Part shown: one piece after another, positions 13,644-44,388 of the stretch
Position numbering within the stretch: the stretch's first letter is position 1
Layout: every line of letters begins with the position of its first letter
IMG/VR virus record: IMGVR_UViG_3300017941_000009
Location: 1-60,297 of that record
Reading direction: 5' to 3' (one strand)
Source: a virus
Taxonomy: Duplodnaviria > Caudoviricetes
DNA: 60,297 bases
Position numbers and translations under genes: made by a program
Notes under the pieces: model-generated
The model's input: only the letters and a program-made list of their open reading frames with translations
What the model was told of the DNA's origin: nothing
Database searches by the model: none

Positions 13644-13853
13644 GTGAGGCGTATCAGCGCGCCTGGCCCGGGGAGGGACCTGGAGGGGTTCGAGGCGGCG
13701 ATGCGTACCGCTGGCCTTTTCAAGTCCGGGGTGGTCACGGAAGTCACGGTGGAACATGACCGCGGGTGTCCCTGCCCGAAAGGTGCCTCAAGCGAGTCCT
13801 GTACGTGTCGGCGTGTGACGGTAGTCGAGCGACGATCACTGCCTGAGATGTGA
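13644..13853 (+). CDS. Small Cys/His protein
   Basis: VEHDRGCPC...CTC motif. Confidence 0.5.
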   Translation: MRRISAPGPGRDLEGFEAAMRTAGLFKSGVVTEVTVEHDRGCPCPKGASSESCTCRRVTVVERRSLPEM

Positions 13854-13861
13854 GGGGTAGC

Positions 13862-14509
13862 ATGGCCAAGACGAAGCGCCCCACCGGCCGCCGCAAGGCG
13901 CCCGCCGGCGCGAAGAAGAAGGCCCCACCCAAGCCGCGGGTCCGTCGGACCGATGATGTTGCACGTGCAACACCCCTGGCCCAGCTCACGGGCAAGCGGC
14001 GTACGTTCGCGCAGGAGTACGTCCTCGACCACAACGCCACGAAGGCCGCGGAGCGGGCCGGGTACAGCGCCAAGACGGCAGCGCAGCAAGGCTACCGATT
14101 GTTGAGAAATGTTCATGTGGCTGCCGCCGTGGCGTGGCTCGAGGAACGCATCGCGGAGAAGAACCTCGTTACAGCGGATCGGGTCCTCCGTGAGCTGTTG
14201 ATCCTCCTCGACAGCGACGTCCGGCACTTCCTCGTGGACAACGACGGTCAGCTTCAGCTCGCCGCCGGCGCGCCGGACACCGCGTGGCGTGCGGTCTCGA
14301 GCGTGAAGCACAAGACCACCACCTACGGCAACGGCGAGCGCGAGACCACAGTGCACGAGGTGGAGTTCCGGCTGTGGGATAAGCCGGCCGCGGCGCGGAT
14401 GTTGGGCGAGCACCTGGGCCTCTTCCCCCACAAGATCGACCTGTCGGACGTCACGAAGCTGACGGACGAGGAGCTCGCCGCCCGGCGCAAGGCGCTTGGG
14501 CTGAAGTGA
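13862..14509 (+). CDS. terS: Terminase small subunit
   Basis: LTGKRRTFAQEYVLDHNATKAAERAGYSAKTAAQQGYRLL; directly upstream of terL. Confidence 0.93.
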   Translation: MAKTKRPTGRRKAPAGAKKKAPPKPRVRRTDDVARATPLAQLTGKRRTFAQEYVLDHNATKAAERAGYSAKTAAQQGYRLLRNVHVAAAVAWLEERIAEKNLVTADRVLRELLILLDSDVRHFLVDNDGQLQLAAGAPDTAWRAVSSVKHKTTTYGNGERETTVHEVEFRLWDKPAAARMLGEHLGLFPHKIDLSDVTKLTDEELAARRKALGLK

Positions 14510-16038
14510 CCACCCCGCCGGCGCGGCTGGAGCGGTATGCGCTGGAGCTGGAGACCGAGTACCGGCGCCGGCTCCGCGCCCCGGTGTCCGAGCGTCAGGT
14601 GCTGACGTTCCGGCAGTTCATCTGCAGGGTCCACCCTCGGTTCATCTGGTACACGCACTGCGAGCGCCTGGTGGCCGTGCTGCAGCGCGTGGCCGACGGC
14701 GAGATCAAGCGCCTGATCGTGATGGCGCCGCCGCGGCACTCGAAGTCCGAAACCGTCACGCGGCTCTTCAGCGCCTACCTGGTCTACCGCTTCCCCGAGC
14801 GCTGGGTCGGGCTCGCGGCGTACGGAGCGCAGCTCGCCTACACGTTCTCGCGGGCCGCGCGGGCCTTCGCGCGCGCCGCGGGTATGGAGTTCCAGGGCGA
14901 TGCCGAGGCGGTCGAGCAGTGGGAGACCACGAAGGGTGGCGGCCTGTGGGCGGCCGGCGTGGGCGGGCCGGCGACGGGCAAGGGCTTCCACTGCGGGATC
15001 TTGGATGACCCCCTGAAGAACGCCGAGGAGGCTGCCAGCGCCACGATCGCCAACCGGAACCAGGAGTGGTGGGAGTCCACGTGGTACACCCGCCAGGAGC
15101 CGGATGCGGCACTCGTCGTCATCCTGACGCGCTGGCCAGGGCCCGCGGATCTCATCGGCTGGCTCTTCGAGCAGGAAGCGGCGGACGAGCACCCGGAGCA
15201 CTGGCACATCATCGCCTTCGAGGCAGAGAAGTCCGAGGAGCCCTACCCCATCCCGGCGACCTGCACGCTCGAGCCGGACTGGCGGCAGCCGGGCGAGGCC
15301 CTGTGTCCGGAACGCTACCCGCTCGAGAAGCTCCACAAGCTGGCGAAGCGCATTGGCTCGTACTTCTGGAACGCCCTGTACCAGCAGCGGCCTGGCCCCC
15401 GCGAGGGCGGGCTCTTCAAGTACGACTACTGGAAGCTCCTCGAGGCGGTGCCGGCCGTGGGCCGGATGGTGCGCTACTGGGACACGGCGGGCACCGACAA
15501 GAAGGTCGGCAACGACCCCGACTACACGGCTGGCGGCCTGCTCTGCAGGATGGAGGATCTCTGCACAGCGATCGTGGACGTGGTGCGGTTCCGTTACTCG
15601 CCGGCCCGCCGCGATGCGAGGATCCTCGAGGTGGCGCGCGCCGACCTGGAAGCCTATCGTGGTCGCGTGACGTGGTGGTTCGAGACGGAGGTGGGCGTCC
15701 AAGGTGAGGAGCGCACGAAGGCGATCGTGAAGCGGTGTCAGAACCTCGGCCTGACCGTGCACGCGGAACACCCGACCGGGAGCAAGCGCGGCCGCGCTGA
15801 GCCGTTCGCCGCCGCGGCGGAGGCCGGCAACGTCTATCTCTGCCCCGGCGAGTGGCGCGATGGGTTCCGCGCGCGGGCGGCGGACTTCACCGGCGCCGAG
15901 GGCGGCGAAGACGACGAGCTCGACGCGGTCGACGGCGCGTACGCCAAGCTCAACGATGACGAGAGCGCCTTCGGTCCGCCGAAGCCGGCGTCGGAGCGGA
16001 AGAAGGTCCGGCCCCTGTTCGCGAGGGCCACGCCATGA
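14506..16038 (+). CDS. terL: Terminase large subunit
   Basis: Walker A-like APPRHSKS, Walker B GILDDP, coupling motif ILTRW, and nuclease motifs RYWDTA...DYTA...DDELDA. Confidence 0.95.
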   Translation: MTTPPARLERYALELETEYRRRLRAPVSERQVLTFRQFICRVHPRFIWYTHCERLVAVLQRVADGEIKRLIVMAPPRHSKSETVTRLFSAYLVYRFPERWVGLAAYGAQLAYTFSRAARAFARAAGMEFQGDAEAVEQWETTKGGGLWAAGVGGPATGKGFHCGILDDPLKNAEEAASATIANRNQEWWESTWYTRQEPDAALVVILTRWPGPADLIGWLFEQEAADEHPEHWHIIAFEAEKSEEPYPIPATCTLEPDWRQPGEALCPERYPLEKLHKLAKRIGSYFWNALYQQRPGPREGGLFKYDYWKLLEAVPAVGRMVRYWDTAGTDKKVGNDPDYTAGGLLCRMEDLCTAIVDVVRFRYSPARRDARILEVARADLEAYRGRVTWWFETEVGVQGEERTKAIVKRCQNLGLTVHAEHPTGSKRGRAEPFAAAAEAGNVYLCPGEWRDGFRARAADFTGAEGGEDDELDAVDGAYAKLNDDESAFGPPKPASERKKVRPLFARATP

Positions 16039-17643: not shown

Positions 17644-17906
17644 TGGGCCAGCGCCAGCGGCGGCACCGCGCCGGCGTGGCGCTTAGTTCCCTCCCCGTGG
17701 GGGCTATCTTCTACCCTCCGCGGATGACGCAACGGCTCATTGAGCGCTGGCGGGTGTGGGGTCCGGGGCACCACGGCGGCGTCTTCGTGCAGGAGCGCGT
17801 GCTGCATCGGGACGGGGGCCGGTGCCGCTACGCCTGGGGGCCGGCGGTGGAGTGGTCAGGTGGGGTGCTGGTCGAACCCGTGGGGCGGAAGCGAAAGACC
17901 CGATGA
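17643..17906 (+). CDS. Hypothetical protein
   Basis: TGATG coupling; ends in an ATGA overlap. Confidence 0.45.
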   Translation: MGQRQRRHRAGVALSSLPVGAIFYPPRMTQRLIERWRVWGPGHHGGVFVQERVLHRDGGRCRYAWGPAVEWSGGVLVEPVGRKRKTR

Positions 17907-18646
17907 ACCCCTCGACGGATCTCACGATCGTGACGACCGTCACGAGCGGCTACGCGAAGTTCCTGCCGGAGTGGGCGGCCAGCCTCGCGGCGCTGAAGTC
18001 GCCGGCGGCGGTCGGCATCATTCTGGGCAACGGCCTGGGCAAGAGGGGCCGGGACATCTGTGCGGCGGTGGAGAACCCCAAGGGGGCGACACCCCTGTAC
18101 TACACCGATGCCGCCTTCATGCCCTGTGGGCAGGCGCGCAACCTCGCAGTGGGATCCTCGGCGACTCGCTGGGTGATGCACCTCGACGCCGACGATACGC
18201 TCCTGCCCGATGCCCTCGAGACCATCGCCGCGGTGGGCGACGACGCCGACGTCATCCAGCTCGGGTACGAGCACTGGTGGCCCGGCAACCCCCACGGCTA
18301 CCCGCGGAAGCGGCTGTACGAGGCGTGCACGGGCCTCGAGGCGCTGGATGCGAAGGCGATCGCCTCGGGCTGCTCACCGTTCCGGAAGAGTCTGTGGGAG
18401 CAGTGGCGCTACCCGGAGCAGCTCGAGGCGAGCTGGGACTACGGCCTCTGGCTGGGCTTCGCGCACCTCGGTGCGCGGTTCCGGCCGACGAAGCGTCCTG
18501 TGTTCAAGTACCGGCAGTGGGGCGGGTCGCACTGGCGGAGGGTGGGGCAGCACCGACACGAGAACCTCCTCGCGCTGCGGCGGTGCCTCGAGGCTGATTT
18601 CGCCGGCGCGCAGCAGGTGAACCTTCTCCTCGGAGCGATCTCGTGA
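17903..18646 (+). CDS. GT-A (GT2-like) glycosyltransferase
   Basis: LTIVT...ARNLAV...WVMHLDADD (DxD)...WDYGLWL...FKYRQW. Confidence 0.88.
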   Translation: MNPSTDLTIVTTVTSGYAKFLPEWAASLAALKSPAAVGIILGNGLGKRGRDICAAVENPKGATPLYYTDAAFMPCGQARNLAVGSSATRWVMHLDADDTLLPDALETIAAVGDDADVIQLGYEHWWPGNPHGYPRKRLYEACTGLEALDAKAIASGCSPFRKSLWEQWRYPEQLEASWDYGLWLGFAHLGARFRPTKRPVFKYRQWGGSHWRRVGQHRHENLLALRRCLEADFAGAQQVNLLLGAIS

Positions 18647-19398
18647 GCACTGTGCAACGACGGCGCGCCCACGCCCCAGAGGACGGGTACGACTTCGGCA
18701 ACAAGCGCCAGTACCGACGGACCATCTGGAATGGCTTCGCGCAGCTGGGGACAGATGGACACGCGCTCCTCATGCCAGCCCTGGAAGGTGATGAGATCGA
18801 CGAGGCGTTGCGTCACGGGTTCCGCGAGGACCACCTCCACGTCGTGGACCACAACCCCGCAGTGGTGGCAACCCTCAAGCGGCGCTACCCTCGCATCCAT
18901 ACCTACGGCGTGGACGTCGTGCGCGCCTGTCGTCGCATAGCGAAGAAGGGGATAGACCTCGTCGCCGCCAACTTCGACTTCTGTGGCCCCGTCTCCCCTG
19001 CGCTCTTTCAACGGGTCCAGCGCGTGGCAGCGATGCACTGTTGGGCTCCCCGGTCACGCCTCGCCGTGACGGTCCTGCGGGGTCGCGAACATGGGACGGC
19101 TCGTACGTGGCTCAGGCGGCGCCTGTTCCTCCAGACGGGACATAACTTCTGGCGCGGATCTGAAGTACGGGCGCTGGCATACGGGAGACCTTCCATCGCG
19201 GATCGTGCTCGCATCGGCGCGGTCGGTGAGGCGTTGATGGATTGGGGCTTCGCCTATGATCCTATGAAGATGACGGTTTGGCTGAGTCGAATCGGGACGT
19301 ACCGTAGTATCGCGGGCAACCAGACGATGCTCTGGATGATGTTCGAGAACGTGCGTGAGGGTGATGGACTCGGTGGCCCTGATGAGGAGGTGCGGTGA
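18643..19398 (+). CDS. Putative class I SAM-methyltransferase-like protein
   Basis: Rossmann-like order LLMP..EG / LHVVDHN / ANFDFCG; weak call. Confidence 0.45.
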   Translation: MSTVQRRRAHAPEDGYDFGNKRQYRRTIWNGFAQLGTDGHALLMPALEGDEIDEALRHGFREDHLHVVDHNPAVVATLKRRYPRIHTYGVDVVRACRRIAKKGIDLVAANFDFCGPVSPALFQRVQRVAAMHCWAPRSRLAVTVLRGREHGTARTWLRRRLFLQTGHNFWRGSEVRALAYGRPSIADRARIGAVGEALMDWGFAYDPMKMTVWLSRIGTYRSIAGNQTMLWMMFENVREGDGLGGPDEEVR

Positions 19399-19653: not shown

Positions 19654-20673
19654 GTGAAGCACCTCCTGTTTGTGCTGGCACTGGCCGCGTGCGCCGCGGC
19701 ACCGACCGCGCCGGCGCACCGGGCCTGCGACTCGTGCCTGGTGCAGGATCGCCTGGCGGCCGATGCGAGCCTGGCCCTCCCCGACAGCCTGACCACCGTC
19801 GTAGTGAAGACCTACGATGGCGCGAACCAGGTCGTGCACCCCGATGCGATCGCGTTCCCGGTGCCGCTCCACGGCTGGCGCTACGGCCTCCTGGCGATGC
19901 CCTACCCGCCGCGGGAGGGCCGGGACCAGGTCGAGCGGCCCTCGCTCTGGGTGAGTAACAACCGGCGGTACTGGACGACGGTCACGGACAGCACGAAGAA
20001 TCCCATCGCTGCCGCTGTGCGCGGTCATATCTTGTCCGACAATTCCATCTTGTACGACACGGCGTTGGGCGGGTTGCGGATCTACTACCGCGAGAACGTG
20101 CCCAACACCCCGGACCACGTCCTCACGAAGACCTCGCCGGATGGGGGGCTGACGTGGAGTGCGGCCCGTGAGGTCCTCGCACCGGGCCCCAATGACGGCT
20201 TCCACGAGTTCGCCTATCTCTCGCCGACCGAGGTCTACCACCGGATGTGGTACGTCTCGGCGCAGGACGGCTGCTATTCGACGGCTTCTCTGCTCCACGA
20301 GCGGTCCTCGGTCGATGGCGAGCACTGGGGTGCGGAGACCACGGACAGTCTCGTGCAGCCGGGCTACGTGCCCTGGCACATCAACATCGTCTACGATGCG
20401 GCCAGCAGGCAGTACCTTGGCCTCCTCGCCGCTTTCCATCCCGCCGATGGCTGCGCGGCCACGGACCTGTTCCTGATCACGAGCGTGGATGGCACGCACT
20501 GGATGACGTATCCTCAGCCCCTGATGCGTGCGGCGTACGAGTCGACGTTCGTTGACCACGACGCGCAGGGGGCGACGATCCTGTTCTCGCGCATCGGGCC
20601 GGCGAACGGGGTGTTCACGCTGGCCATCCAGCACTACGCCTGGGCGGACCTGTACCAGAGGGTGACCCAATGA
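19654..20673 (+). CDS. Lipoprotein with Asp-box beta-propeller (glycosidase-like)
   Basis: Lipobox MKHLLFVLALAAC; Asp-boxes TSPDGGLTWS, SSVDGEHWG, TSVDGTHW; VVHPD motif. Confidence 0.72.
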   Translation: MKHLLFVLALAACAAAPTAPAHRACDSCLVQDRLAADASLALPDSLTTVVVKTYDGANQVVHPDAIAFPVPLHGWRYGLLAMPYPPREGRDQVERPSLWVSNNRRYWTTVTDSTKNPIAAAVRGHILSDNSILYDTALGGLRIYYRENVPNTPDHVLTKTSPDGGLTWSAAREVLAPGPNDGFHEFAYLSPTEVYHRMWYVSAQDGCYSTASLLHERSSVDGEHWGAETTDSLVQPGYVPWHINIVYDAASRQYLGLLAAFHPADGCAATDLFLITSVDGTHWMTYPQPLMRAAYESTFVDHDAQGATILFSRIGPANGVFTLAIQHYAWADLYQRVTQ

Positions 20674-20903
20674 CGATCCCGGGACAGATCGGGACGTGGA
20701 CCAGCCCGAGCGGCGAGGTGGTGCCGATCGTGGAGCCGGCGATCAACACGCACGTGACCTGGGATGTCACGGCGGTGCTCGACGGCGTGATCCTGCCGAT
20801 GAACGTGGCGTACGCCAGCCTCCTGGCGCAGCGCGACTACTGGCGGCGCAAGGCGGACGAGGCGCGCACGGCGCTCGCCGACCAGAAGTCGGGCGGCCTG
20901 TGA
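20670..20903 (+). CDS. Hypothetical protein
   Basis: ATGA-coupled. Confidence 0.55.
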   Translation: MTIPGQIGTWTSPSGEVVPIVEPAINTHVTWDVTAVLDGVILPMNVAYASLLAQRDYWRRKADEARTALADQKSGGL

Positions 20904-21105
20904 ACGGGAAGGGCTCGGCGCGGCGGCCCGCGGCCTTCGTGCCGCGGTGCGGGACGGTGCGGCACGTCTTCCTCGCCGGCTACGACCGCTGCGTCTGCGG
21001 CGAGCGCAAGCTCTCGGTGCCGCTGTACCGCGGCACGCTTCACCCGGTGGAGATTCCCTCGGAGTTCTATGAGGAGATTCTCCCCCTTGAGGCTCGGAGG
21101 AGGCG

Positions 21106-21840
21106 GTGAGCGTTCACGTTTTCTACACGCCGCACCCGGACGACGAGACGCTCGGGATGGCCGGCGCGATTGCGCGGGCCAAGCGCGAGGGCCACCGCGT
21201 GGTGCTCGTGCTCCTGACGGACTCCATGCCGAGCAAGCGGTTGCAGCGGATCTTCCGGGGTGAGCTCCTCTGCCCGATCCACAACCGCTTCCACGTCTCG
21301 CCGGTGGACCTCGGGAAGGCGAGGATGGCGGAGTTCCGGGCGGCCGCGCGCAAGCTAGGGGTGGACGAGGTGAGCGAGGTCCACATCCCCGAGCAGATCA
21401 TCAGTGAGGACCGGGGTGGCTTCCTCGACAGCATCGTGGCGACTGTGCGGGGCTACGAGGCGCGCTACCCCGGCGCGGTGCACCACTTGGTGAGCGGCGA
21501 CCGCGACATCGCGATGCCGAACCTCCAAGAGACACACCGCACGCACCGGCTCTGCTGGGAGGCGGGACTGCAGCTCGCCGGCGAGGGGCTGCAGGTGCTG
21601 TTCCACCGTGTCTACGTCTACCGCCTGCCGCTGAAGTCGCGCTTTGAGGGAGTGCCGTGGTCTACGGCACCGCGGGTCGAGGTACTGGACGATGAGCTGA
21701 TGAGCGTGAAGCGGGCGGCGCTGGGGGCGTACCAAGTCTGGGATCCCCCGCGGGATCGCATCGCCTTCGCCTACCACTCGGTGCCGGATCTCTTCGAGGG
21801 AGCCGGCAGCGACCCGCACGAGTACGTGGACCTGCCGTGA
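21106..21840 (+). CDS. PIG-L/LmbE family N-deacetylase
   Basis: YTPHPDDETLGMAG, R..E...A...LG and HRTH motifs. Confidence 0.92.
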   Translation: MSVHVFYTPHPDDETLGMAGAIARAKREGHRVVLVLLTDSMPSKRLQRIFRGELLCPIHNRFHVSPVDLGKARMAEFRAAARKLGVDEVSEVHIPEQIISEDRGGFLDSIVATVRGYEARYPGAVHHLVSGDRDIAMPNLQETHRTHRLCWEAGLQLAGEGLQVLFHRVYVYRLPLKSRFEGVPWSTAPRVEVLDDELMSVKRAALGAYQVWDPPRDRIAFAYHSVPDLFEGAGSDPHEYVDLP

Positions 21841-21845
21841 GTGGG

Positions 21846-22010
21846 TCAGCCGCGGCGCGCGAGCACCTTGAGGTGGGTCACGTGCGTCTTGTGGCGCAGG
21901 TGGAACTGGTGCATCAGTTGGCGGCCGAACTCCTGCATCGCGCGGAGTATCACCACCTGCTGGTGCGCGAGGTGCTTGACGTGGGCAACGTGGTCGGTAT
22001 GCGCGGACAT
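21846..22010 (-). CDS. His-rich peptide B (54 aa, HxxH periodicity)
   Basis: MSAHTDHVAHVKHLAHQQVVILRAMQEFGRQLMHQFHLRHKTHVTHLKVLARRG*; AGGGAGG SD; paralog of peptide A. Confidence 0.75.
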   Translation of the reverse strand: MSAHTDHVAHVKHLAHQQVVILRAMQEFGRQLMHQFHLRHKTHVTHLKVLARRG

Positions 22011-22022
22011 CGGAACCTCCCT

Positions 22023-22169
22023 TTAGTGGCGCCTGGCGAGCACCCGCTTGTGGCGCAAGTGGATGAGGTGCTGGTAGTGGTAGATGATGTGGCGCACCAT
22101 GATGTCGTACTGGCGCGCCAAGTACGCGACGTGGTTCAGGTGCTTGACGTGGTCGGTATGCGCGGACAC
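22023..22169 (-). CDS. His-rich peptide A (48 aa, HxxH periodicity)
   Basis: MSAHTDHVKHLNHVAYLARQYDIMVRHIIYHYQHLIHLRHKRVLARRH*; GAGAGGG SD before GTG. Confidence 0.75.
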   Translation of the reverse strand: MSAHTDHVKHLNHVAYLARQYDIMVRHIIYHYQHLIHLRHKRVLARRH

Positions 22170-22244
22170 GGGGCCCTCTCTCGGGATGAACAGTGAAAGG
22201 CGCGGTACTATGATGATGCGCGATGCACGCACGAGCAAGACGCC

Positions 22245-22517
22245 GTGAGCGTCTACGTCGATCACGTGCGGAACTGGGGCTGGAGGCTGGGGCCGAACGC
22301 GCACCTGTTCGCGGACTCTCTCGAGGAGCTGCACGCCTTCGCCCGCACACTGGGACTGCGGAGCGACTGGTTCCAGAACCGACCGGACTTCCCGCACTAT
22401 GACTTGACGGGGAGGCGGCACGCTGCGGCGCTCCGTCATGGAGCCACGCTGGTCAGCAACCAGTTCGTGTTCGAGCGCCTGCAGGTCAACCGTGCAGCGC
22501 GAGAGGCAACGCCGTGA
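22245..22517 (+). CDS. DUF4031 family protein
   Basis: VYVD...HLFADSLEELHAFARTLGLRSDWFQ...PHYDLT...A...GA. Confidence 0.88.
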   Translation: MSVYVDHVRNWGWRLGPNAHLFADSLEELHAFARTLGLRSDWFQNRPDFPHYDLTGRRHAAALRHGATLVSNQFVFERLQVNRAAREATP

Positions 22518-23245
22518 AGGTCTCGATCCTCCTCCCGGCCCATGAGCGGCCGGCGCTGCTGATGCAGGCGATCGCCAGTGCCAGCGCGCAGGAGTTCCTG
22601 GCTGACGAGTACGAGATCGTCGTCGTCCACGACGGCCTCGATGCCGACTGGCTGCCGGTCTCGGACTGGGGGCCTCCCGTGCTGCGCGTCCACGCGATCC
22701 CGCACAAGAGCCTCGGCGCCGCCATCAACGCCGCGGCAAACCTGGCGCGTGGCGACTACCTGACGGTCCTGCCGGACGACGACCTAATCCGGCCGCACAA
22801 GCTGCGCGTTCTGATGGCGGCGCTCGAGGCGCACCCCGAAGCAGATGGTGTGTACGCCCGGCCCCAGTACATCAACGGGGACGGCGAGCCGATCGAGACG
22901 CCCGCCCGGCTCCGCGAGTGGCTGCTCGAGCATCCAGTTGTCACGCCGGCGAGCTTCGCCAGGGACGGGTTGATGGTCCACGGGGTCGCGACAATGTACC
23001 GGCGCGCGGCGTGGCTCAGCACGGGCCCGTGGGATGAGACCCTGCCGACCGCAGAGGAGTGGGAGTGGCACGTGCGGTTCTTCTACACGGGACACACGCT
23101 GGTCGCGGTGGACGCCGTGACGGACTACTACCGGGTGCACGACGCGCAGAAGAGCCGGCGGAAGGCCCGCGGCCAACGCACGCGGCGGGAGGTCCTCGCC
23201 GGGATCCGCCGGCGCTATAGCCCCTGGCCCGAGCAGTACCGATGA
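22514..23245 (+). CDS. GT2 glycosyltransferase
   Basis: KVSILLPAHER...EIVVVHDG...AINAA...ARGDYLTVLPDDD...EEWEW...YRVH. Confidence 0.92.
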   Translation: MKVSILLPAHERPALLMQAIASASAQEFLADEYEIVVVHDGLDADWLPVSDWGPPVLRVHAIPHKSLGAAINAAANLARGDYLTVLPDDDLIRPHKLRVLMAALEAHPEADGVYARPQYINGDGEPIETPARLREWLLEHPVVTPASFARDGLMVHGVATMYRRAAWLSTGPWDETLPTAEEWEWHVRFFYTGHTLVAVDAVTDYYRVHDAQKSRRKARGQRTRREVLAGIRRRYSPWPEQYR

Positions 23246-23754
23246 ATCAGCTTGTGTACCGCGACGAGAACCTCGAGCTCTGGCACGGCCATGCGGCCGA
23301 TTACGAGGGGCGGCGGCCAGACCTCATCTTCACGAATCCCCAGGCGTGGCTGCCGAAGACCTTCTCGGGTGTGCCGATGCTGCTGCACCAGCGACTGTGC
23401 CGCAAGAGGGCTTTGGCGCGCTGGGCGCACGTCCACGAGCGCGACCTCCATCTCATCAGCCTGTGGAACAATGGGCGTGAGGCGTTCTGGACCGTGAACA
23501 TCGAGGTGCCGTGCTGGGTGGAGCTCGGCCGGTATGTCCCGGACCCGCCCGGCCGGTGGCCACTGGGCCTCGCGGACAGCCTGCTGGAGGTCTACGGTAC
23601 GGTGGGTGGCTTACTCTGGGACGGGTTCATGGGCCGTGGCACGGGAGCCAAGGCGGCACTCGGCGCGGGGATGTACTACGTGGGCATCGAGTGCCGGTCG
23701 GAAGCCATCGAACTGGCACGGGCCTATCTCCACCTCGCTCCGGCGGGCGTGTGA
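23242..23754 (+). CDS. Degenerate N4/N6 DNA-methyltransferase-like protein
   Basis: DLIFTNPQA sits where DPPY is expected; motif I LWDGFMGRGT and YVGIE are retained; very short. Confidence 0.65.
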   Translation: MNQLVYRDENLELWHGHAADYEGRRPDLIFTNPQAWLPKTFSGVPMLLHQRLCRKRALARWAHVHERDLHLISLWNNGREAFWTVNIEVPCWVELGRYVPDPPGRWPLGLADSLLEVYGTVGGLLWDGFMGRGTGAKAALGAGMYYVGIECRSEAIELARAYLHLAPAGV

Positions 23755-25538
23755 AGCCGCCACCGAGTCCGTGGGAGGACCGGCACCCCGAGGGGCTGGT
23801 CCTTCGGCCTTGGCGGCCGGCGCCAGAGCCCCGGACGCTCGTCTCCTGCACCATCCTGCGCTCGCGGGACGTCCCGCTCTGGCTCGAGCGGGCGCCGAGC
23901 TGGCGACCGGGGGTGGACCGCTCGATCGTGGTCCTGGGGTCGTGGAGCGAGAAGGAGCCCTCTGCGGTAATCGAAGGTGCCTCGAAGCAGCTCACCGCGC
24001 TGGGCGTGAAGGTGATCCTGCCTCCCGCCGGAGGCTGGCCGGACCAGATCGCCAAGCGATCGGCCTACTTCGCCCGGCTGTCCCCTGGAGAGGTCGCCTT
24101 CATCGTCGATGCGGACGAAGAGCTCGTAGAAGGGCCCGAGGCGCTGCGCCAGGCGGCCGCGGGGGCGTTTGACGTGGGGTGGCTGACCATCGAGGCCCAC
24201 CCGCGGTACGAGCGCGTCTACGGGCAGCCCAGGCTCTTCCTGGTGCCTCCGGAGGGATTGCTCTATCGGGAGCGCCATCACTGGGTATTCACTACCGACG
24301 GCCGGCTGGTGGCGGGCCACAGCTACGGGGGAACCGGCTGGCTGCACGAGCGGGTGCCGCTCACCCTCATCAACCAGGGCGGGAAGCGCCTGCTGGCGCA
24401 CCGGCGGCAAGTGCAGAAGGAGCAGCAGTTCAAGCACTCCGCGTTGGACAGCGGGGCGGACAAGATCGAGCCGTTGTTCATCGCCCAGGTGATGCGGTAC
24501 GACGCGGGGCTGGCCGCCTACCGGCTGCACAGTGCGATCAACTCCACGACGCGAGAGCGCAGCCTGATGCTGTGCGAGGCGGGGAACAACCCCCTCGCCG
24601 GGCCGCTGCAGTACGACCTCGCCGACCGCAGTCTGGCGCGGGGGATCATGGCCGGCGCCGACATCCTGCACTGTCACCTCGACTACACCGGCCTCGCTGC
24701 CGTGGGCGGCCATCCCGACCAGCCGGTGATCATCCACCATCATGGCACGATGTACCGCCGGGATCCCGAGCGGGCGGACCTGCTCGACCGGCGGGCGGCG
24801 CTGCGGCTCGCCAGCACGATGAACCTCCTGCTGCTCGACAAGACCGGCACGCTCCAGTGGCTGCCGAACCCCGTGCCCGTGGCGCTCTACCGCCGAATGG
24901 CAGCCGCGGCGCACGCCGAGCGCCAGGGCCTCGCGCACGAAGTGTGGATCGCGCACTCGCCCAGCAAGCCGAAGCTGAAAGGCACAGGCGAACTCCTGGC
25001 CGTTGTGGAACGCCTGCGGAAGAAGCGTCTCAAGGTGCGGCTGCAGCTCACGATGGGCGTGCCGCACGCCCAAGCACTGTGGACGAAGGCGGCGTGCGAC
25101 CTGTGCTTCGATAGCTTCTGGCTGGGGATCCAGGTCTCGGGGCTCGAGGCGGCAGCGATGGGCCAGCCGGTGCTCGCCGGCGATCAGGACACCGCCGACG
25201 AGTACGTGCGGCGCGTGGGGTCCCTGCCGTACACCTTCGTCACGCCGGAGACGCTGGAGGAGGTCCTCGAGCGGCTGGTCGTGGACGCGGACCACCGGGC
25301 GGAGGAGGCGGCGCGCGTCGGCGCCTATGTGCTGCAGTACCACGACGAGCCGGCGGTCGCACGACGCTACCTCGAGCTCGTGCGCGCAGCGCTGGCCGGG
25401 CAGTGGCGGCGTCGGCTGCGGGACGCCGTGGACACCGAGCGCAAAGTGCTGGCGAAGGCACTGCGGCAGGACGTGAAGACGGATGTGCAGGTCGTCGGTA
25501 CGGACTTCCGCTTGGGCCCGCGCGTGCGATCGCTGTAA
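23751..25538 (+). CDS. Fused GT-A + GT-B glycosyltransferase
   Basis: N-terminal FIVDADE; C-terminal IAHSPSKPKLKGT...CFDSFWLG...SGLEAAAMGQPVL. Confidence 0.85.
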   Translation: MKPPPSPWEDRHPEGLVLRPWRPAPEPRTLVSCTILRSRDVPLWLERAPSWRPGVDRSIVVLGSWSEKEPSAVIEGASKQLTALGVKVILPPAGGWPDQIAKRSAYFARLSPGEVAFIVDADEELVEGPEALRQAAAGAFDVGWLTIEAHPRYERVYGQPRLFLVPPEGLLYRERHHWVFTTDGRLVAGHSYGGTGWLHERVPLTLINQGGKRLLAHRRQVQKEQQFKHSALDSGADKIEPLFIAQVMRYDAGLAAYRLHSAINSTTRERSLMLCEAGNNPLAGPLQYDLADRSLARGIMAGADILHCHLDYTGLAAVGGHPDQPVIIHHHGTMYRRDPERADLLDRRAALRLASTMNLLLLDKTGTLQWLPNPVPVALYRRMAAAAHAERQGLAHEVWIAHSPSKPKLKGTGELLAVVERLRKKRLKVRLQLTMGVPHAQALWTKAACDLCFDSFWLGIQVSGLEAAAMGQPVLAGDQDTADEYVRRVGSLPYTFVTPETLEEVLERLVVDADHRAEEAARVGAYVLQYHDEPAVARRYLELVRAALAGQWRRRLRDAVDTERKVLAKALRQDVKTDVQVVGTDFRLGPRVRSL

Positions 25539-32216: not shown

Positions 32217-32719
32217 TCGCCAACCTCTTCCTCGGCGAGTCGGGAGGTGCCCGGCTGCTCGAAGCGGACCAGGGCAGCCACGACGACGGCGAGCGGGTCT
32301 ACGCGCGCCTCGAGACGGTGGCCGCTGGTCCCGGCCTCGGGGGCGAGGCCATCTTCACCGCCCTGTTCATTGGCATTGAGAACAATGCCGATGCGGACGT
32401 GGATGTGACGCCGATCATCACGGGGGCGAACGAGGATGGCACCCCGTTCGAGCGCGAGCTCGAGACCCAGCAGATCACGCTCCACGCCAGCGCGGAACGC
32501 ACGCGCGTCCAGTACCAGCTCGGCGTCTCCGACCCACTGATCATCGGCGGCGTCGAGGTCGGGCGGTTCGCCGCGCGCGCCACCTGGTTCCGGGTGCGCA
32601 TCGTGGCGCTGGTCCATTCGCCGGGCGATCTCCTCTTCCACGGTCTCGGCGTCGAGATGGAAGTCGTGCGCGAGGCCATCCCGACACAGGCGCCAGCGCC
32701 CGTTCCGGCGGGGTCCTAG
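32213..32719 (+). CDS. Probable nozzle C-terminal beta-sandwich encoded separately
   Basis: [12 protein letters not shown]...RATWFRVRI...LLFHGLGVE resembles the C-termini of podovirus nozzle proteins. Confidence 0.5.
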
Positions 32720-35700
32720 TGGCTGGCGGCTTCCGGCGCCAGACCAGTAAGGGGCTGCCACAGCCCCTCTTGCCCGGCGCAGCCGGCGCCGATCTCACGG
32801 CGCTCGTCCGCACCCTGGATTCCTACGTCATCGACCAGTGGGCGTGGAAGGAGCCGGCCACCCAGCGTCTCCTCTACGCCTACAAGGGCGGTACGGTCTT
32901 CACGGGCCTGGCCTTCATCCTGATCCCCGACGGCACGACCCCGCTCGCGGACAACGCCACCAACTACGTCGAACGGGATAGCGCGGGTGCCGTCTCGGTC
33001 AACAGCACGGGCTTCAGCGCCGCCCGGACGCCGATGGCGAAGGTCGCCACGGCCGGCGGCCAGATTGCGACCGTGGAGGACTGGCGGCCCCTGGCGCAGT
33101 CCTCGTCTGGGAACCTCTCGGGGCCCAGTGGCCCCTCTGGTCCCTCGGGCCCCGGCTCGACCGTGTCAGGCCCCAGCGGTCCCTCGGGTCCGAGCGGGCC
33201 GGCGTCTACGGTCTCCGGACCGTCTGGGCCGTCTGGTCCTGTGTCCACGGTCTCGGGCCCCAGTGGTCCCAGTGGCCCTAGCGGCCCCGTCTCGACCGTC
33301 AGCGGCCCTTCGGGGCCGTCGGGACCCTCCGGTCCAGGGGGCGCGGCCTCGACGGTCTCCGGGCCTTCTGGGCCCTCGGGGCCCCACGGTGCCGATTCGA
33401 CGGTGAGCGGGCCGAGCGGGCCATCTGGCCCGCAAGGTGCCGCTTCCACTGTGTCCGGGCCGAGTGGCCCTTCGGGTCCCCAGGGTGCAGCATCCACGAT
33501 CTCCGGCCCGAGCGGGCCGAGCGGACCGAGCGTCACTGGACCTTCGGGACCCTCGGGCCCTTCTGGACCGCAGGGGGCGGCTTCGACGGTCTCGGGCCCG
33601 AGCGGTCCCAGCGGCCCCGTCTCAACCACCAGTGGGCCTTCGGGTCCATCGGGCCCTTCCGGGCCGGGTGGTGCCGCCTCGACAGTGAGCGGCCCCAGCG
33701 GACCCTCAGGGCCCCAGGGAGCGGCCTCGACCGTCAGCGGTCCCTCAGGACCTAGTGGACCGCAGGGAACAGCAAGCACGGTAAGCGGGCCGTCTGGTCC
33801 TTCTGGTCCGTCTGGGCCGCAAGGAACTGCTTCGACGGTGTCGGGGCCGTCGGGACCGAGTGGACCCACGGGTGCCGCATCTACCGTCAGCGGACCGAGC
33901 GGTCCCTCGGGGCCGCAGGGGAACCCCTCGACGGTCTCGGGACCCTCCGGGCCCTCCGGTCCGAGCGGTCCTCAAGGCGCTGCCTCAACCGTTAGCGGGC
34001 CGAGTGGTCCATCCGGGCCACAGGGAGCAGCTTCGACGGTCAGCGGCCCTTCGGGGCCCAGTGGACCCACGGGAGCGGCATCCACGGTCTCTGGCCCGTC
34101 TGGGCCCTCGGGTCCGCAAGGGAATGCTTCGACGGTGAGTGGGCCCTCCGGCCCCAGTGGGCCGTCCGGGCCGCAGGGTGCCGCCAGTACGGTCTCTGGG
34201 CCGTCCGGACCGAGCGGGCCACAGGGCACTGCTTCTACGGTATCTGGGCCCTCGGGTCCTTCGGGTCCTCAGGGTGCAGCATCCACGATCAGCGGCCCCT
34301 CAGGCCCCTCCGGACCACAGGGAAACGCCTCGACCGTGAGCGGGCCGTCTGGGCCAAGCGGCCCTTCGGGACCACAGGGAGCGGCGAGCACGGTCTCTGG
34401 GCCAAGTGGTCCCTCAGGCCCTCAAGGCGCAGCTTCCACGGTCTCGGGGCCCTCCGGACCGAGTGGCCCACAGGGGAATGCCTCGACGGTCTCCGGACCG
34501 AGCGGTCCTTCTGGGCCTTCCGGACCACAGGGAGCTGCCTCCATAGTCTCTGGCCCCTCAGGTCCGAGTGGCCCGCAGGGCGCTGCATCGACCGTTAGCG
34601 GGCCGAGTGGACCGAGTGGACCCCAGGGTGCCGCCTCGACGGTTTCGGGGCCCTCGGGGCCGTCCGGACCGCAAGGCGCGGCATCCACGGTTTCGGGGCC
34701 GAGCGGGCCCAGTGGACCCACGGGCGCAGGGGGCCCGAGCGGACCTTCCGGACCCTCCGGGCCGAGTGTCACCGGCCCGAGCGGCCCCTCAGGACCCAGC
34801 GGGCCGGCGGGATCCCTGGCGCACCACGTCCTCTCGGCTACTCACACGGACTCCAATGCCGCAGCGGCCGGCGTGGCCCGCGGCGATCTCCTGGTGGGCA
34901 ATGCCACGCCGGCTTGGGACCGGCTCGCTTTCCCGGCCTCTCCAACCGGGAAGGTGGTCGTCGCCTCGGCGACGGACATCGGGTGGAGCGCGAACCCGCT
35001 CGGCAGTGCGGCGTGGGCGGCGACGGGGGACTTCGCTCCGGCGGCGGGGACCTTCACGAACACGATAACTCAAAGCCCCGCGACTGACGGGATAGATGGC
35101 ATCATCCTCAACGGCAGGGACTCGGTAAGCGGGAACCTCTACAATGTCTTCCGGCTGATAGCCTATGCCAATTCCGGCGGGGCGACTCCGACGTGGACGT
35201 TGGGAATCATCAATACTGCGAACTCTGCGTGGCAACCCGTACTAACGGCAGCGACCTCTGGCGCGGCGACCTTCGCGGCGGGCCTCACCATCGCCGGTGC
35301 GCTCGCAGGCGTGACGACGACACAGTTCCATGCCATCACCTATACGTGGCCCTCTGCTGATGCGGGAGCCAGCGGTTACGTCCTCTCCTCTAACGCCTCG
35401 GGCACTTTGAGTTGGGTTGCCCAAACGGCCGCCGCGGCGGTGACGAGTGTGGCCGGTCGCACAGGGGCTGTGGTACTGACGGCGGCTGACATCGGGGCGG
35501 GAACATTCCCGAGTGGTCAGTTCAAAATGGGTGGCACACCGTGGGCAGCTTCTCTTGATGCGCTTAACATGGGAGTTAACCAGAGGATTACGTTCCGTAA
35601 CTACAATGACAACGATGACGTTAGCATCAGTGGTGGCTTCAACGGCATATCGGGAAGTGCTCTTACTGTTACTGGATATGGACTAGAGGTGTTGAATCGC

Positions 35701-35832
35701 TTCGGCTGTAACGGCAAGTCGGCTCAACCCGCGTACGCATCCGGTGGTGCGGCGGGTGGGACTCTGGCACAGGTAACGACGTTGGCGAATAACATCCGGG
35801 CGGCGCTCGTTGCCGACGGTATCATGTCGTAG
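32719..35832 (+). CDS. Collagen-like tail fibre
   Basis: About 560 aa of (GPS)n interrupted by GAASTVS; [19 protein letters not shown] fibre motif; distinct C-terminal tip. Confidence 0.88.
33121..34812 (+). repeat. Coding tandem repeat GPSGPS(GPS)[10 protein letters not shown]
   Basis: Visible directly in the translation; synonymous codons vary strongly between copies. Confidence 0.95.
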
Positions 35833-36734: not shown

Positions 36735-38432
36735 ATGAAGTATTCCGGCCTCTTGTCGAAGCGGGACGCCGTCGTTCTTCAGCACTATGCGGCGAAGGCG
36801 CCGCGCATCCTGGAGTTCGGCGCCGGCGGCTCGACCCAGATCTTCGCGCAGTGCGCGCCGGGAACCGTCCTCACCCTCGACACGAACCCGCACTGGATCG
36901 ACCAGACCAAGGCCAGCCTCAAGGCGCTCAAGGTCCCCCCGGGCCGCGTGGCGTTTCGGCTGCTACCCCACGAGACGGGCCCGTCGCTGGACGCGGCGCT
37001 CCAGCGCGAGGCGGCGCCCCGTGCGCCGTATCACCTGGTGTTCAACGACGGCGCGAGCGACCACGAGATGCGGCTGGCGTTTGCCCGTGCCGCCTGGCCG
37101 CTGCTCGCCGAGGGGGGCGCACTCCTGACGCACGATACCCGCCTCCAGCCGGACATCGGATGGCTCTGTACATTTCTGGCGGAGCACTTCGCGACGGTGG
37201 GCCGCGTGTACGCGAACCACCGCGACAGCAACATCACCGTCGTCATCAAGCGCGCTCCATTGCCCTACGAACCCTTTGTCACCGCAACCGACTGGAGACC
37301 CGAGCCGATTATGCCCACCGTCCACCTGTTGGGCCTCGCACACACGATCACCCGCCCTGAGTTCTCGAAGTGCCCCTTCACGGGGAACCTCCTGCGGTTT
37401 CCCAAGATGCTGAAGCCTTTCGGTTACAAGTGCATCCACTATGGCGTCGAGGGGGCGCAGGTCCCCGGTGCGGAGTGTGTCGCGGTGACGAGCGCCGTGC
37501 GGTTCCGGCTGCAGCACAAGGGGCACTCGTGCGATCCGCGCAGTGAGGAGAGCCTCTGGATTCCGGAGGTCTACGAGCTCGACAAGCCGGCGGCGATCGA
37601 GCACCAGAAGGGCATCGTCAAGGCCCTCCTGCCGCGGCTCTCCCGCGGGGACATCGTGTGCTTCCCCTTCGGGCGGGTGCACGAGCGGGTGCTGGCGAAG
37701 CTGCCCCCAGACGTGGTGGCGATCGAAACCGGGATCGGCTACGAGCAGGAATCCTCCATGCCGTTCCAGGTCTTCGTGTCGAACGCCTGGTACTCGTGGC
37801 ACCGGGGCCGTGCGCGGAACATGAACGGCGACTACTACAAGTTCGTGATCGGCAACTCGTTCGATGTCGACGAGTGGACGGTGCGTCCCATCCCCAAGAA
37901 GGGGTATGTGCTCTACCTCGGGCGGTGCAACGAAGACAAGGGGATGCGGATCATCTACGACCTGGCCGCCGCGCGGCCCGACCTGCAGTTCGTCCTCTGT
38001 GGCCAGGGCGCGACGTTCTGGGCCCAGCTCCCGAACATGAAGGCGCTGCCACAGGTCTGGGGCAAGGAGCGGAACACGCTCTTTGCTGGCGCGCAGGTGG
38101 TGTTGATGCCGAGCCTGTACCTCGAAGCGTTCGGGAACGTCTGCGCTGAAGCCCAGCTCTGTGGGCGCCCGGTGCTGAGCACGCCCTGGGGGGCCTTCCC
38201 CGAGATCCTCGCGCACGGGGTGGCAGGCTACCACTGCCGCACCCTGGGGGACTTCCTCAAGGGACTCGAGCTGGCACCGACGCTCAGTCCCAAGGCGATT
38301 CGTGCGCAGGCGGTGGCGCAGTTCTCCCTGCCGGTGGCGGGCGCGAAGTATCACGCGGCCTTCCAGCAGTGCCAGGACCTCCTCGCGGGTCCCGGGTGGG
38401 CCTCGCGAACCCCCCACTGGATCAACGCATGA
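36735..38432 (+). CDS. SAM-methyltransferase + GT-B (GT4-like) glycosyltransferase fusion
   Basis: ILEFGAGGST...LVFNDG...LLTHD, then LYLGRCNEDKG...PSLYLEAFGNVCAEAQLCGRPVL. Confidence 0.9.
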   Translation: MKYSGLLSKRDAVVLQHYAAKAPRILEFGAGGSTQIFAQCAPGTVLTLDTNPHWIDQTKASLKALKVPPGRVAFRLLPHETGPSLDAALQREAAPRAPYHLVFNDGASDHEMRLAFARAAWPLLAEGGALLTHDTRLQPDIGWLCTFLAEHFATVGRVYANHRDSNITVVIKRAPLPYEPFVTATDWRPEPIMPTVHLLGLAHTITRPEFSKCPFTGNLLRFPKMLKPFGYKCIHYGVEGAQVPGAECVAVTSAVRFRLQHKGHSCDPRSEESLWIPEVYELDKPAAIEHQKGIVKALLPRLSRGDIVCFPFGRVHERVLAKLPPDVVAIETGIGYEQESSMPFQVFVSNAWYSWHRGRARNMNGDYYKFVIGNSFDVDEWTVRPIPKKGYVLYLGRCNEDKGMRIIYDLAAARPDLQFVLCGQGATFWAQLPNMKALPQVWGKERNTLFAGAQVVLMPSLYLEAFGNVCAEAQLCGRPVLSTPWGAFPEILAHGVAGYHCRTLGDFLKGLELAPTLSPKAIRAQAVAQFSLPVAGAKYHAAFQQCQDLLAGPGWASRTPHWINA

Positions 38433-43008: not shown

Positions 43009-44388
43009 ATGGCTTCCGAAACGACCACCACAGCCCTCATCGACGAGGCGCTGAAGGTGATCTTCGCGAAGAGCATCCATGACGACATCGTGGTGGACCA
43101 CGAGCTCATGGACATCTTCAAGGCGGAGATGAACGTCAAGAGCGACGAGACCACGGGGGGCCGCTGGATCGAGCAGGGCCACTTCTGGCAGTACCCGGCC
43201 GGCTTCGGGTGGCGCCAGGACAATGAGTACATCCCCGAGGCGGTCTCGGCGAAGTTCAAGAACAGCCGGCTCTACCTCCGCAAGGGGCAGGGCGTGCTGG
43301 AGATGAGCGGCGACACGATGCGCAAGGTGCGCACCGACGAGGGGGCCTTCCTCGACTACATGGAGAAGGCGAAGCCCGCCCTGATCGAGGGCGTGAACAA
43401 CGAACTGGACCTCGCCTACCTCGGCACCGGCTCGGGCATCAAGGCGGAGGTGGCGTCGAAGGATGGTGGGGGCTCGACCGCCGGGACGTACAAGCTCGGG
43501 GTGAAGCATCACTCCGGCATCCCCGGCTACACCGAGGCGTGGCTGGCCTTCCTCGAAGGCCAGAACATCATCTTCGGGTCCAACGCGACCTTCCACACCA
43601 TCCGCGCCGGCGCGCCCGGCCGCTACGCGACCGTGGTGGGCATCGTCGAGGATCGCAACCAGATCATCGTGAAGTGCGATGCCACGCTCTACAGCAACAT
43701 CACGGCGGGCGACTGCATCGCCGAGGGCGATGGGGCCGGCTACTCCGCGATGGACCGGGACGGCAACCCGCGCGTCATGGCGGGCCTCCTGGCCGGCGAC
43801 GACAACGGCGAGATCGTCGAGGTGTACAACAACATCGACCGGATGGCGGACGACGCCCGCCTGTGGCGCTCGCACGTCATCGACGCGCAGGCGGAGTCCG
43901 GCGGCGCGCTGTCTGAGGACCTGCTCGACCTGGCCTTCCGCCGGGCCGTGGTCCGCGGCAACGCGAAGATCACCCACATCGTGATGTCGCACTCGGCATC
44001 CACGATGTACTGGCGCGGGCTGCGGGACGGCGTCAACGCCCAGGGCCAGCAGCGGTTCGTGAACGTCGAGGGCAACTTCACCTCCGGCAAGGGCAAGCTG
44101 GGCATCCGCGTCGGGGCCGAGGTCTACCCCGTGCGCGTCTGCCGCAAGCTCCCGCCCGAAGTCGTGTTCGGCCTCCAGGCCGATCGCTGGGCGCGGCTCA
44201 CCCTCGGCGCGCTCACCTGGGAGGAAGAGACCGGCTCCATGTGGAACCGGGTCGTGGACAGCACGGGCCGGAAGGATGCGTACTACAGCACCTTCCACCT
44301 GTACGAGCAGCTCTACTGCATCGCCCCGCAGAAGCAGTTCCGGATCGACGGGCTCAACCCCGCCGAGCACCCGGCCCACGCGAGCTGA
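43009..44388 (+). CDS. Major capsid protein
   Basis: 459 aa after scaffold, GAGGAG SD, strongly biased codons; GTGSGIKA, MAGL...IDR....WRS and YEQLYCIAP patterns of HK97-fold capsids. Confidence 0.85.
   Translation: MASETTTTALIDEALKVIFAKSIHDDIVVDHELMDIFKAEMNVKSDETTGGRWIEQGHFWQYPAGFGWRQDNEYIPEAVSAKFKNSRLYLRKGQGVLEMSGDTMRKVRTDEGAFLDYMEKAKPALIEGVNNELDLAYLGTGSGIKAEVASKDGGGSTAGTYKLGVKHHSGIPGYTEAWLAFLEGQNIIFGSNATFHTIRAGAPGRYATVVGIVEDRNQIIVKCDATLYSNITAGDCIAEGDGAGYSAMDRDGNPRVMAGLLAGDDNGEIVEVYNNIDRMADDARLWRSHVIDAQAESGGALSEDLLDLAFRRAVVRGNAKITHIVMSHSASTMYWRGLRDGVNAQGQQRFVNVEGNFTSGKGKLGIRVGAEVYPVRVCRKLPPEVVFGLQADRWARLTLGALTWEEETGSMWNRVVDSTGRKDAYYSTFHLYEQLYCIAPQKQFRIDGLNPAEHPAHAS

Follow-up and report, generated by a model that had tools for sequence, protein, structure and literature searches.

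Two tandem open reading frames (ORFs), pepA and pepB, occupy the minus strand of a 404-nt gap between the PIG-L gene, which ends at 21840, and the DUF4031 gene, which starts at 22245, and on sequence grounds both are probably translated genes. The outstanding trait of their products is the periodicity of the histidines (His); His richness alone is not unique to them. The window analyzed here comprises an entire IMG/VR virus record (60,297 bases), whose estimated completeness is 72% and whose GC content is 66-74%. The features of the locus are as follows:

21846-22010, minus strand: pepA, ATG start and TGA stop, 54 amino acids (aa), 10 His
22026-22169, minus strand: pepB, GTG start, 48 aa, 10 His, with its TAA stop at 22023-22025
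22016-22022, minus strand: SD-like motif AGGGAGG of pepA, 5 nt before the ATG and abutting the pepB stop
22174-22181, minus strand: SD-like motif AGAGAGGG of pepB, 4 nt ahead of the GTG
21837-22196, plus strand: ORF of 119 aa, read as a shadow of the minus-strand genes
22170-22244: divergent spacer of 75 nt between pepB and DUF4031, the presumed site of a leftward promoter
22187-22214, plus strand: sigma-70-like site TGAACA-16-TATGAT, from the promoter scan

A pair of paralogous histidine-rich ORFs on the minus strand

An initial annotation of this DNA had reported two paralogous minus-strand ORFs of 54 and 48 aa with 10 His each, and both were present as described when the sequence and the ORF list were consulted. 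Each ORF was also said to have its own SD, and an SD-like motif does precede both pepA and pepB, while pepB, as the same annotation had remarked of one of the peptides, is hidden in a longer ORF, i.e., one of 138 aa at 22023-22439 on the minus strand. The shared elements that had been listed were all seen in the alignment of the two peptides, namely a common start, (M/V)SAHTDHV, a common His register, an ungapped HLRHK at residues 37-41 and a common end, VLARR(G/H). In pepA, His residues stand at positions 4, 7, 10, 13, 16, 34, 37, 40, 43 and 46, and in pepB at positions 4, 7, 10, 13, 27, 31, 34, 37, 40 and 48, so that His makes up 18.5% of pepA and 20.8% of pepB, as compared with 2.4% in the 61 ORFs of the window. 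Neither peptide contains HH, HxH or Cys.

The two ORFs share a reading frame at a distance of 159 nt, and nothing but the in-frame TAA and four codons stands between them. Given that the SD-like AGGGAGG of pepA directly abuts the pepB stop, the arrangement suggests translational coupling of the two genes.

Evidence for coding on the minus strand

In this genome of 68% GC, the GC fractions at the three codon positions (GC1/2/3) were decisive: they were 0.75/0.31/0.91 for pepA and 0.65/0.25/0.98 for pepB, which resemble those of neighboring genes, whereas the values for the plus-strand ORF at 21837-22196 were 0.91/0.32/0.68; the latter composition is typical of a frame that lies antisense to, and codon-aligned with, a real gene. 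Thirty-five genes of the window, with log-likelihoods of 0.25 to 0.74 per codon, served to train a codon model, under which pepA scored 0.52 per codon and pepB 0.64, as compared with -0.01 for the plus-strand ORF. The other five frames of the peptide region had lower codon scores or contained stops. Both GC3 and codon likelihood (LLR) thus agree with the earlier placement of the coding frame on the minus strand. SD-like motifs also precede many other genes of the phage, and an 18-nt indel that distinguishes the pepA and pepB copies preserves the frame.

Both ORFs are called proteins in two independent collections. The gene caller of the source called pepA as a protein (P0001), and pepB is on record there as a 71-aa version starting from a TTG at 22238 (P0002), the extension having an LLR of -0.38. 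The ESM Atlas contains both peptides letter for letter, with pepB in its 48-aa form.

The single frame shared by pepB and pepA, with so little between them, would also permit one four-module protein of ~107 aa to be made by read-through of the TAA, and the plus-strand ORF, which is likewise open, might itself be the real gene. However, TAA is a working stop in this phage, given that it terminates 5 of 61 other ORFs of the window, and, as a strong SD also occupies the exact interval between the ORFs, a pair of coupled genes is likelier than a read-through protein. The plus-strand ORF, for its part, has a shadow-type composition and no homolog. The initial annotation had named homologs that conserve the plus-strand frame 21837-22196 as evidence that would count against the peptides; our search for relatives of this ORF returned 238 candidates, none of them at E ≤ 1; Pfam returned nothing for the ORF, and its PHROGs matches were weak (E 0.11 and 0.83). 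We regard read-through and a plus-strand gene as the least probable of the explanations considered here.

Histidine register and its conservation

When positions are taken modulo 3, the 10 His of pepA all belong to a single class, which 0 of 20000 random placements achieved, and 8 of the 10 His of pepB do, which 59 of 20000 achieved. Translating the 60-kb window in all six frames gave seven occurrences of HxxHxxHxxH, of which the peptides account for six, while the remaining one lies at 19355-19384 on the minus strand. Stop-free stretches of 45 aa with at least 8 His were found 13 times in the window, including off-frame examples with 13 and 10. The residue immediately after a His is hydrophobic for 6 of 10 His in pepA and for 7 of 9 in pepB.

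Among the aligned residues of pepA, His was kept in pepB at 7 of 8 positions as compared with 15 of 40 for the other residues (one-sided Fisher p=0.013). Between the two genes, pN/pS was 0.20/0.23 in the N-terminal module, 0.20/0.37 in the C-terminal module and 0.74/0.37 in the middle, such that the diverged middle noted earlier is borne out by a pN of 0.74 between the modules as compared with 0.20 within them. Because the GC3 bias limits pS and the counts are small, dN/dS is uninformative here, and it gave no clear sign of purifying selection between pepA and pepB. The claim that the His register is under selection is therefore favored to a modest degree by the retention of His, but not by dN/dS itself.

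Duplication and module architecture

In a BLASTP comparison, pepA and pepB aligned with E=2e-9 and 22 of 53 residues identical. An identical 22-nt start occurs exactly twice in the window, as compared with 0 expected, and its synonymous sites are identical too. The tandem duplication unit measures 159 nt, SD included. Each peptide also carries an internal repeat: residues 4-23 of pepA aligned with residues 34-53 at a score of 40 (shuffle mean 21.8, reached by 4 of 1000 shuffles), and residues 4-21 of pepB aligned with residues 31-48 at a score of 44 (reached by 3 of 1000 residue shuffles). Given that each paralog is internally duplicated, the locus consists of four (HxxH)n-LAR modules of ~20 aa, in each of which four to five H-hydrophobic-x triplets are followed by L-A-R-(R/Q). 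At the DNA level, a 31-nt unit is present in four in-register copies, one per module. TRF detected no tandem array in the peptide genes, and no 9-nt array has survived there. This repeat-on-repeat architecture, together with the lack of relatives described below, suggests that pepA and pepB are a recently arisen gene family, in which a short unit was duplicated step by step.

Search for relatives

The family had gone unrecognized in the initial annotation, and our profile, tblastn and pattern searches likewise gave no relative. A shared-word search with pepA across 5.8 billion clusters returned only pepA itself (1 candidate). With a two-peptide profile HMM (HMMER), three matches were obtained among 1.84 billion representatives, two of which were the window's own peptides; the third, a repetitive protein of 1340 aa that was matched in 12 stretches, was rejected as spurious. 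Searches of 177635 PDB sequences with the two-peptide profile (0 matches at E ≤ 10) and of 50,697 GenBank phage records by tblastn with the low-complexity filter on (none at E ≤ 10) gave no match. The sole match in Pfam, PHROGs and NCBIfam was to Pfam GDH_HM3, which was discarded at E=0.014 and 15.9 bits as compared with a cut-off of 24.6 bits. Rfam had no match at the locus, and the ESM Atlas held no usable neighbor of either peptide.

Pattern searches were also performed at the DNA level. Back-translated patterns picked out 15 viral, 177 metagenome and 37 genome stretches, none of which was confirmed, by a confirmation step that was perhaps too strict given that pepB itself scored only E=0.0013 against pepA. 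A degenerate scan for the (M/V)SAHTDHV start yielded 0 viral stretches and 16 metagenome stretches, and in none of these 16 was the start then followed by a His array. Scanning of viral contigs for (CAC-N6)x4-CAC found at least 120 stretches; the 177 frames derived from such stretches were inspected by eye and set aside as essentially 9-nt tandem repeats or shadow frames, and the pepA/pepB architecture was absent from the matches listed. None of three related viral records and neither of two actinobacterial metagenome-assembled genomes (MAGs) matched the peptides. A six-frame search of 401 sampled genomes of the actinobacterial class returned 15 matches at a per-genome E ≤ 0.1 (best 0.002), and these were rejected because all were partial, with no more than 39 of 54 positions aligned, and because their number was at or below chance.

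Near-identical DNA is contained in peat and wetland metagenome runs, and no RNA data set was among the 11 runs listed. Contigs of three other peat runs match 20500-24500 with zero differences, and at the locus itself they cover 20970-22113 (X3), 21711-21861 and 21901-22165 (X4) and 21822-21972 (X6), again with 0 differing letters. One phage genotype hence recurs across peat samples, and the peptide pair is confined to one phage genotype.

The phage and its probable host

The record, which stems from an uncultured phage, contains genes for a small terminase (13850-14509) and a large terminase (14506-16038), a major head protein gene (43009-44388) and an HNH endonuclease gene. Compared with the capsid proteins of Arthrobacter phages, that of this phage shows an identity of just 24.7%. 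The closest cellular relatives of the PIG-L gene are found in Actinomycetota MAGs, and an actinobacterial host is therefore likely. Genes without a Pfam or PHROGs match, i.e., orphans, comprised 8 of 8 leftward genes of the phage and 5 of 10 and 4 of 10 of the others.

Two further observations were made elsewhere in the record. The ORF at 32719-35832 encodes a collagen-like tail-fiber protein of 1037 aa that matches several PHROGs tail-fiber families (best E=5e-55) and that, as do the peptides, has a 3-residue sequence period. At 360-449, a tRNA-Leu (CAG) gene overlaps two composition-supported ORFs, 68-370 and 371-652, and because it overlaps both, at least one of these two ORF calls is probably wrong.

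Genomic neighborhood

The composition-supported genes between 11.1 and 59.6 kb are all rightward, short shadow-type ORFs aside, and the end of PIG-L, a gene of a deacetylase family, lies only 5 nt from the pepA stop. The initial annotation had placed the pair within a plus-strand operon. The surroundings are indeed plus-strand, but the operon is not continuous, as it is interrupted by the 404-nt gap and by a promoter-like site at 22187-22214. The latter, on the plus strand, was the only promoter-like site found in 21000-23000 (1 found as compared with 0.1 expected). It lies just upstream of DUF4031 and follows the peptide cassette, and it suggests that a new rightward transcription unit begins right after the cassette. 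No leftward promoter or terminator-like site was recognized in 21000-23000.

The relatives of the neighboring genes are 35% and 29% identical for PIG-L and 62% identical for DUF4031. No gene near the locus yielded a closer relative than the last of these (L127, 2563-3003), which comes from a 43-kb viral contig bounded by direct terminal repeats and is flanked there by different genes. The initial annotation had suggested that the peptides might supply metal to PIG-L, withhold it from metal-dependent defense enzymes or be substrates of the flanking enzymes, and our analysis yielded no support for any of these roles. Nor are the peptides conserved together with the neighboring genes: a small His-rich ORF was present beside the PIG-L or DUF4031 relatives in none of three loci, and because these relatives lack such peptides, the cassette looks like a lineage-specific insertion. 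Synteny queries with the GT2 gene gave no match, and those with the terminase gave only a 4.7-kb fragment. No metal-related gene was apparent in the neighborhood, the sole exception being PIG-L, which belongs to a zinc-dependent family.

Several neighbors have glycan-handling functions, i.e., two GT2 genes, one gene with a GT4-like C-terminus, PIG-L and a BNR-like lipoprotein. The glycosyltransferase genes (GT2, GT4-like C-terminus and one by PHROGs) and PIG-L, at 17756-18646, 21106-21840, 22514-23245, 23511-25538 and 36735-38432, are dispersed over the region from the terminase to the structural genes. Glycosylation of virions is known among actinobacteriophages, and the phage described here may likewise decorate its virions or else modify the host surface. 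The BNR-like product, encoded at 19654-20673, is a protein of 339 aa whose N-terminus, a hydrophobic run closed by a Cys, resembles that of lipoproteins, and its similarity to BNR/sialidase families is weak (Pfam BNR_2, E=0.0012, below the cut-off; phrog_37952, E=1e-10). An ORF of 170 aa at 23242-23754 has a partial match to N6/N4 DNA methylases that falls below the Pfam cut-off. It overlaps the listed start of the 675-aa ORF at 23511-25538 by 244 nt, and the true start of the latter gene is probably further downstream.

Predicted structure and physicochemical properties

AlphaFold2, run on the single sequences without an alignment, predicted a helix at residues 2-53 of pepA (pLDDT 91.6) and at residues 2-47 of pepB (pLDDT 94.3); confident single-helix models are common for short helical sequences and are silent on oligomers. 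The models give no support to the proposal that the two His arrays of each peptide form a hairpin, given that each is one unbroken helix and that the middle of pepB is without Gly or Pro. A prediction of the pepA-pepB complex, run without controls, scored 0.02 as compared with a mark of 0.34.

The calculated pI values were 11.8 for pepA and 10.6 for pepB, with a net charge of about +6.4 at pH 7 and about +15 at pH 5. Whole-peptide hydrophobic moments at 100 degrees were 0.28 and 0.13, GRAVY values were -0.40 and -0.55, and a hydrophobic segment was absent. The His arrays were weakly amphipathic at 100 degrees (0.10-0.30). An i+3 series in an alpha-helix winds round the axis rather than lining one face, and only a conformation with three residues per turn would place all of the His on one face.

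Three specific assignments were tried and rejected. A canonical coiled coil was dismissed in that the best heptad registers held 9 of 16 and 10 of 14 hydrophobic residues, and 3119 of 5000 and 955 of 5000 shuffles, respectively, did at least as well. For a ribbon-helix-helix (RHH) repressor of Arc/CopG size, Pfam gave no RHH match at E ≤ 1 and the AlphaFold2 models were without a strand. As regards a leader or attenuator based on His codons, there are no consecutive His codons, the downstream minus strand holds only the PIG-L antisense, no terminator-like site was seen, and the folds were no stabler than shuffles (z +0.05 to +0.65 for the four RNA segments folded).

Comparison with known histidine-rich systems

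By analogy, the closest counterparts of the peptides in composition and size are SmbP, a four-helix protein, and its 50-aa two-helix Ni-binding fragment (PMC12955753). As with pepA and pepB, SmbP is small and alpha-helical and has repeated His-bearing helices; the fragment has 10 His in 50 aa as compared with 10 in 54 and 10 in 48 here, all ~20%. Furthermore, the four helices of SmbP correspond to the four modules of the pepA/pepB locus, and the two systems have similar local H-V-x-H...K-H-L strings. However, homology to SmbP was not detected in the profile search of PDB (0 matches at E ≤ 10), and the His spacing in the fragment is 3, 4 and 7, i.e., heptad-like, whereas it is strictly 3 in the peptides. 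The pI of the fragment is 6.33 as compared with 10.6-11.8, and SmbP is one chain of bacterial origin, whereas the peptides are encoded by two genes of a phage.

Hpn and Hpn-2, paralogous His-rich Ni-binding proteins of gastric Helicobacter (PMC4671568), resemble the pair in being two small paralogous proteins of high His content. No sequence relation between them and the peptides was found with Pfam or in the profile HMM search. Hpn proteins have stretches of poly-His together with Cys or Gln and are not known to form regular helices; in pepA and pepB, by contrast, His residues are never adjacent, Cys is absent and the 3-residue register is strict. The polyhistidine-triad (Pht) proteins of streptococci, with an HxxHxH motif and a link to zinc (PMC3842936), share with the peptides the presence of repeated His motifs, including HxxH. 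They differ in being large surface proteins, whereas pepA and pepB are without HxH and without a Pfam match. Finally, de novo ORFs of Drosophila have been proposed as zinc chelators (PMC13756084); organism and sequences differ, and the parallel is a conceptual one only. The idea that chelating metal is an easy first role for a newborn ORF would fit an orphan His-rich pair built from repeats. Membership of the peptides in any named family failed wherever it was checked, and by analogy we would file them among small, His-rich, helical, putatively metal-binding proteins.

Proposed function and alternative explanations

We tentatively propose that pepA and pepB are translated tandem micro-genes whose helical His ladders act via metal or pH; the narrower claim, that selection has acted on a metal- or pH-dependent chemistry of the His, is slightly more doubtful. 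According to this proposal, pepB and pepA would form a leftward cassette between two rightward transcription units of a probably actinobacterial phage, and each product would be a long alpha-helix composed of two ~20-residue modules, giving four His ladders per locus. The imidazoles, carried by ~20% of the residues, would ligate Zn, Ni or Cu or would serve as a pH-titratable switch, metal or proton bridging could join the helices into homo- or hetero-oligomers, and the infected cell would thereby gain a metal-binding peptide or one whose binding is gated by metal or pH. We infer each of these steps, i.e., translation, metal or proton binding, oligomerization and the biological role. The strong basicity of the peptides, their lack of HH, HxH and Cys, the weakly amphipathic nature of the His arrays, the missing homology to known metal-binding proteins in the PDB search and a neighborhood with no apparent metal-related gene other than PIG-L all count against the metal reading. 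Known metal-storage proteins are rich in acidic residues. The more ambitious claim, that the pair represents a new class of "histidine-ladder" micropeptides, recently born and bridged by metal or protons, that manipulates metal availability in the host or a host process dependent on metal or pH, is in our judgment unlikely.

Several other explanations were weighed against this proposal. The charge of the peptides at pH 7 and its increase at pH 5, their high pI, the conserved basic tail LARR, the predicted long helices and the reverse-oriented, self-contained cassette, which is typical of phage accessory genes, would all be expected of basic helical binders of DNA, RNA or a host protein, acting as a regulator or in anti-defense or host takeover, with His tuning the binding. 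Such binders, the main rival, are somewhat less probable than the His chemistry proposed above, as there was no DNA-binding, RHH, anti-defense or regulatory match in Pfam, PHROGs, NCBIfam or PDB, and as they leave the strict 3-residue register of the His unexplained. The same cationic, His-rich and predicted helical character might alternatively point to membrane-active peptides, for example an AMP-like lysis accessory switched on by protonation of His. There are precedents among cationic antimicrobial peptides, some of which are rich in His, and a cationic lysis peptide encoded by a phage has been reported as well. A membrane role is nevertheless very improbable in view of the low hydrophobic moments (0.28/0.13), the negative GRAVY values (-0.40/-0.55), the absence of a hydrophobic segment, and the absence of an identified lysis gene nearby in Pfam and PHROGs.

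It could also be argued that the sequences have no selected function as peptides. If pepA and pepB were young proto-genes that arose as a short repeat unit expanded and duplicated, perhaps translated to some extent, with the His register as a relic of a CAC-based 9-nt repeat, one would understand the clear repeat-on-repeat structure, the failure of protein, viral, metagenome and genome searches to find relatives, and a dN/dS not clearly below 1; moreover, most genes of this phage are orphans. Yet the codon usage and GC3 are fully gene-like, the start, SD, frame and stop are kept in both copies, the retention of His exceeds that of other residues (p=0.013), and TRF finds no surviving 9-nt array, and we accord proto-genes a low probability. 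Lower still is that of an untranslated region, i.e., an antisense transcript, a boundary element between the rightward units, or inert DNA in which the ORFs are incidental. No promoter or terminator was recognized on the minus strand in 21000-23000, as such a region might lead one to expect, and the identity of the 22-nt start, including its synonymous sites, could reflect a nucleic-acid constraint or gene conversion. However, period-3 GC with a GC3 of 0.91-0.98 and gene-like codons would not be expected in non-coding DNA, there was no Rfam match, and the four folds were no stabler than shuffles.

Implications

Were pepA and pepB neutral proto-genes, their interest would go no further than to illustrate how closely such ORFs can resemble genes in a high-GC phage. 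If, on the other hand, the peptides are made and do bind metal or switch with pH, they would constitute a minimal natural His-ladder helix with a 3-residue register, a geometry not used by known His-rich metal proteins, and they might find practical use as very small IMAC-type tags. Should the proposal of translated, metal- or pH-responsive His ladders be true, this phage would possess metal-handling micropeptides of its own, and the locus would offer a clear case of gene birth by repeat-on-repeat duplication.
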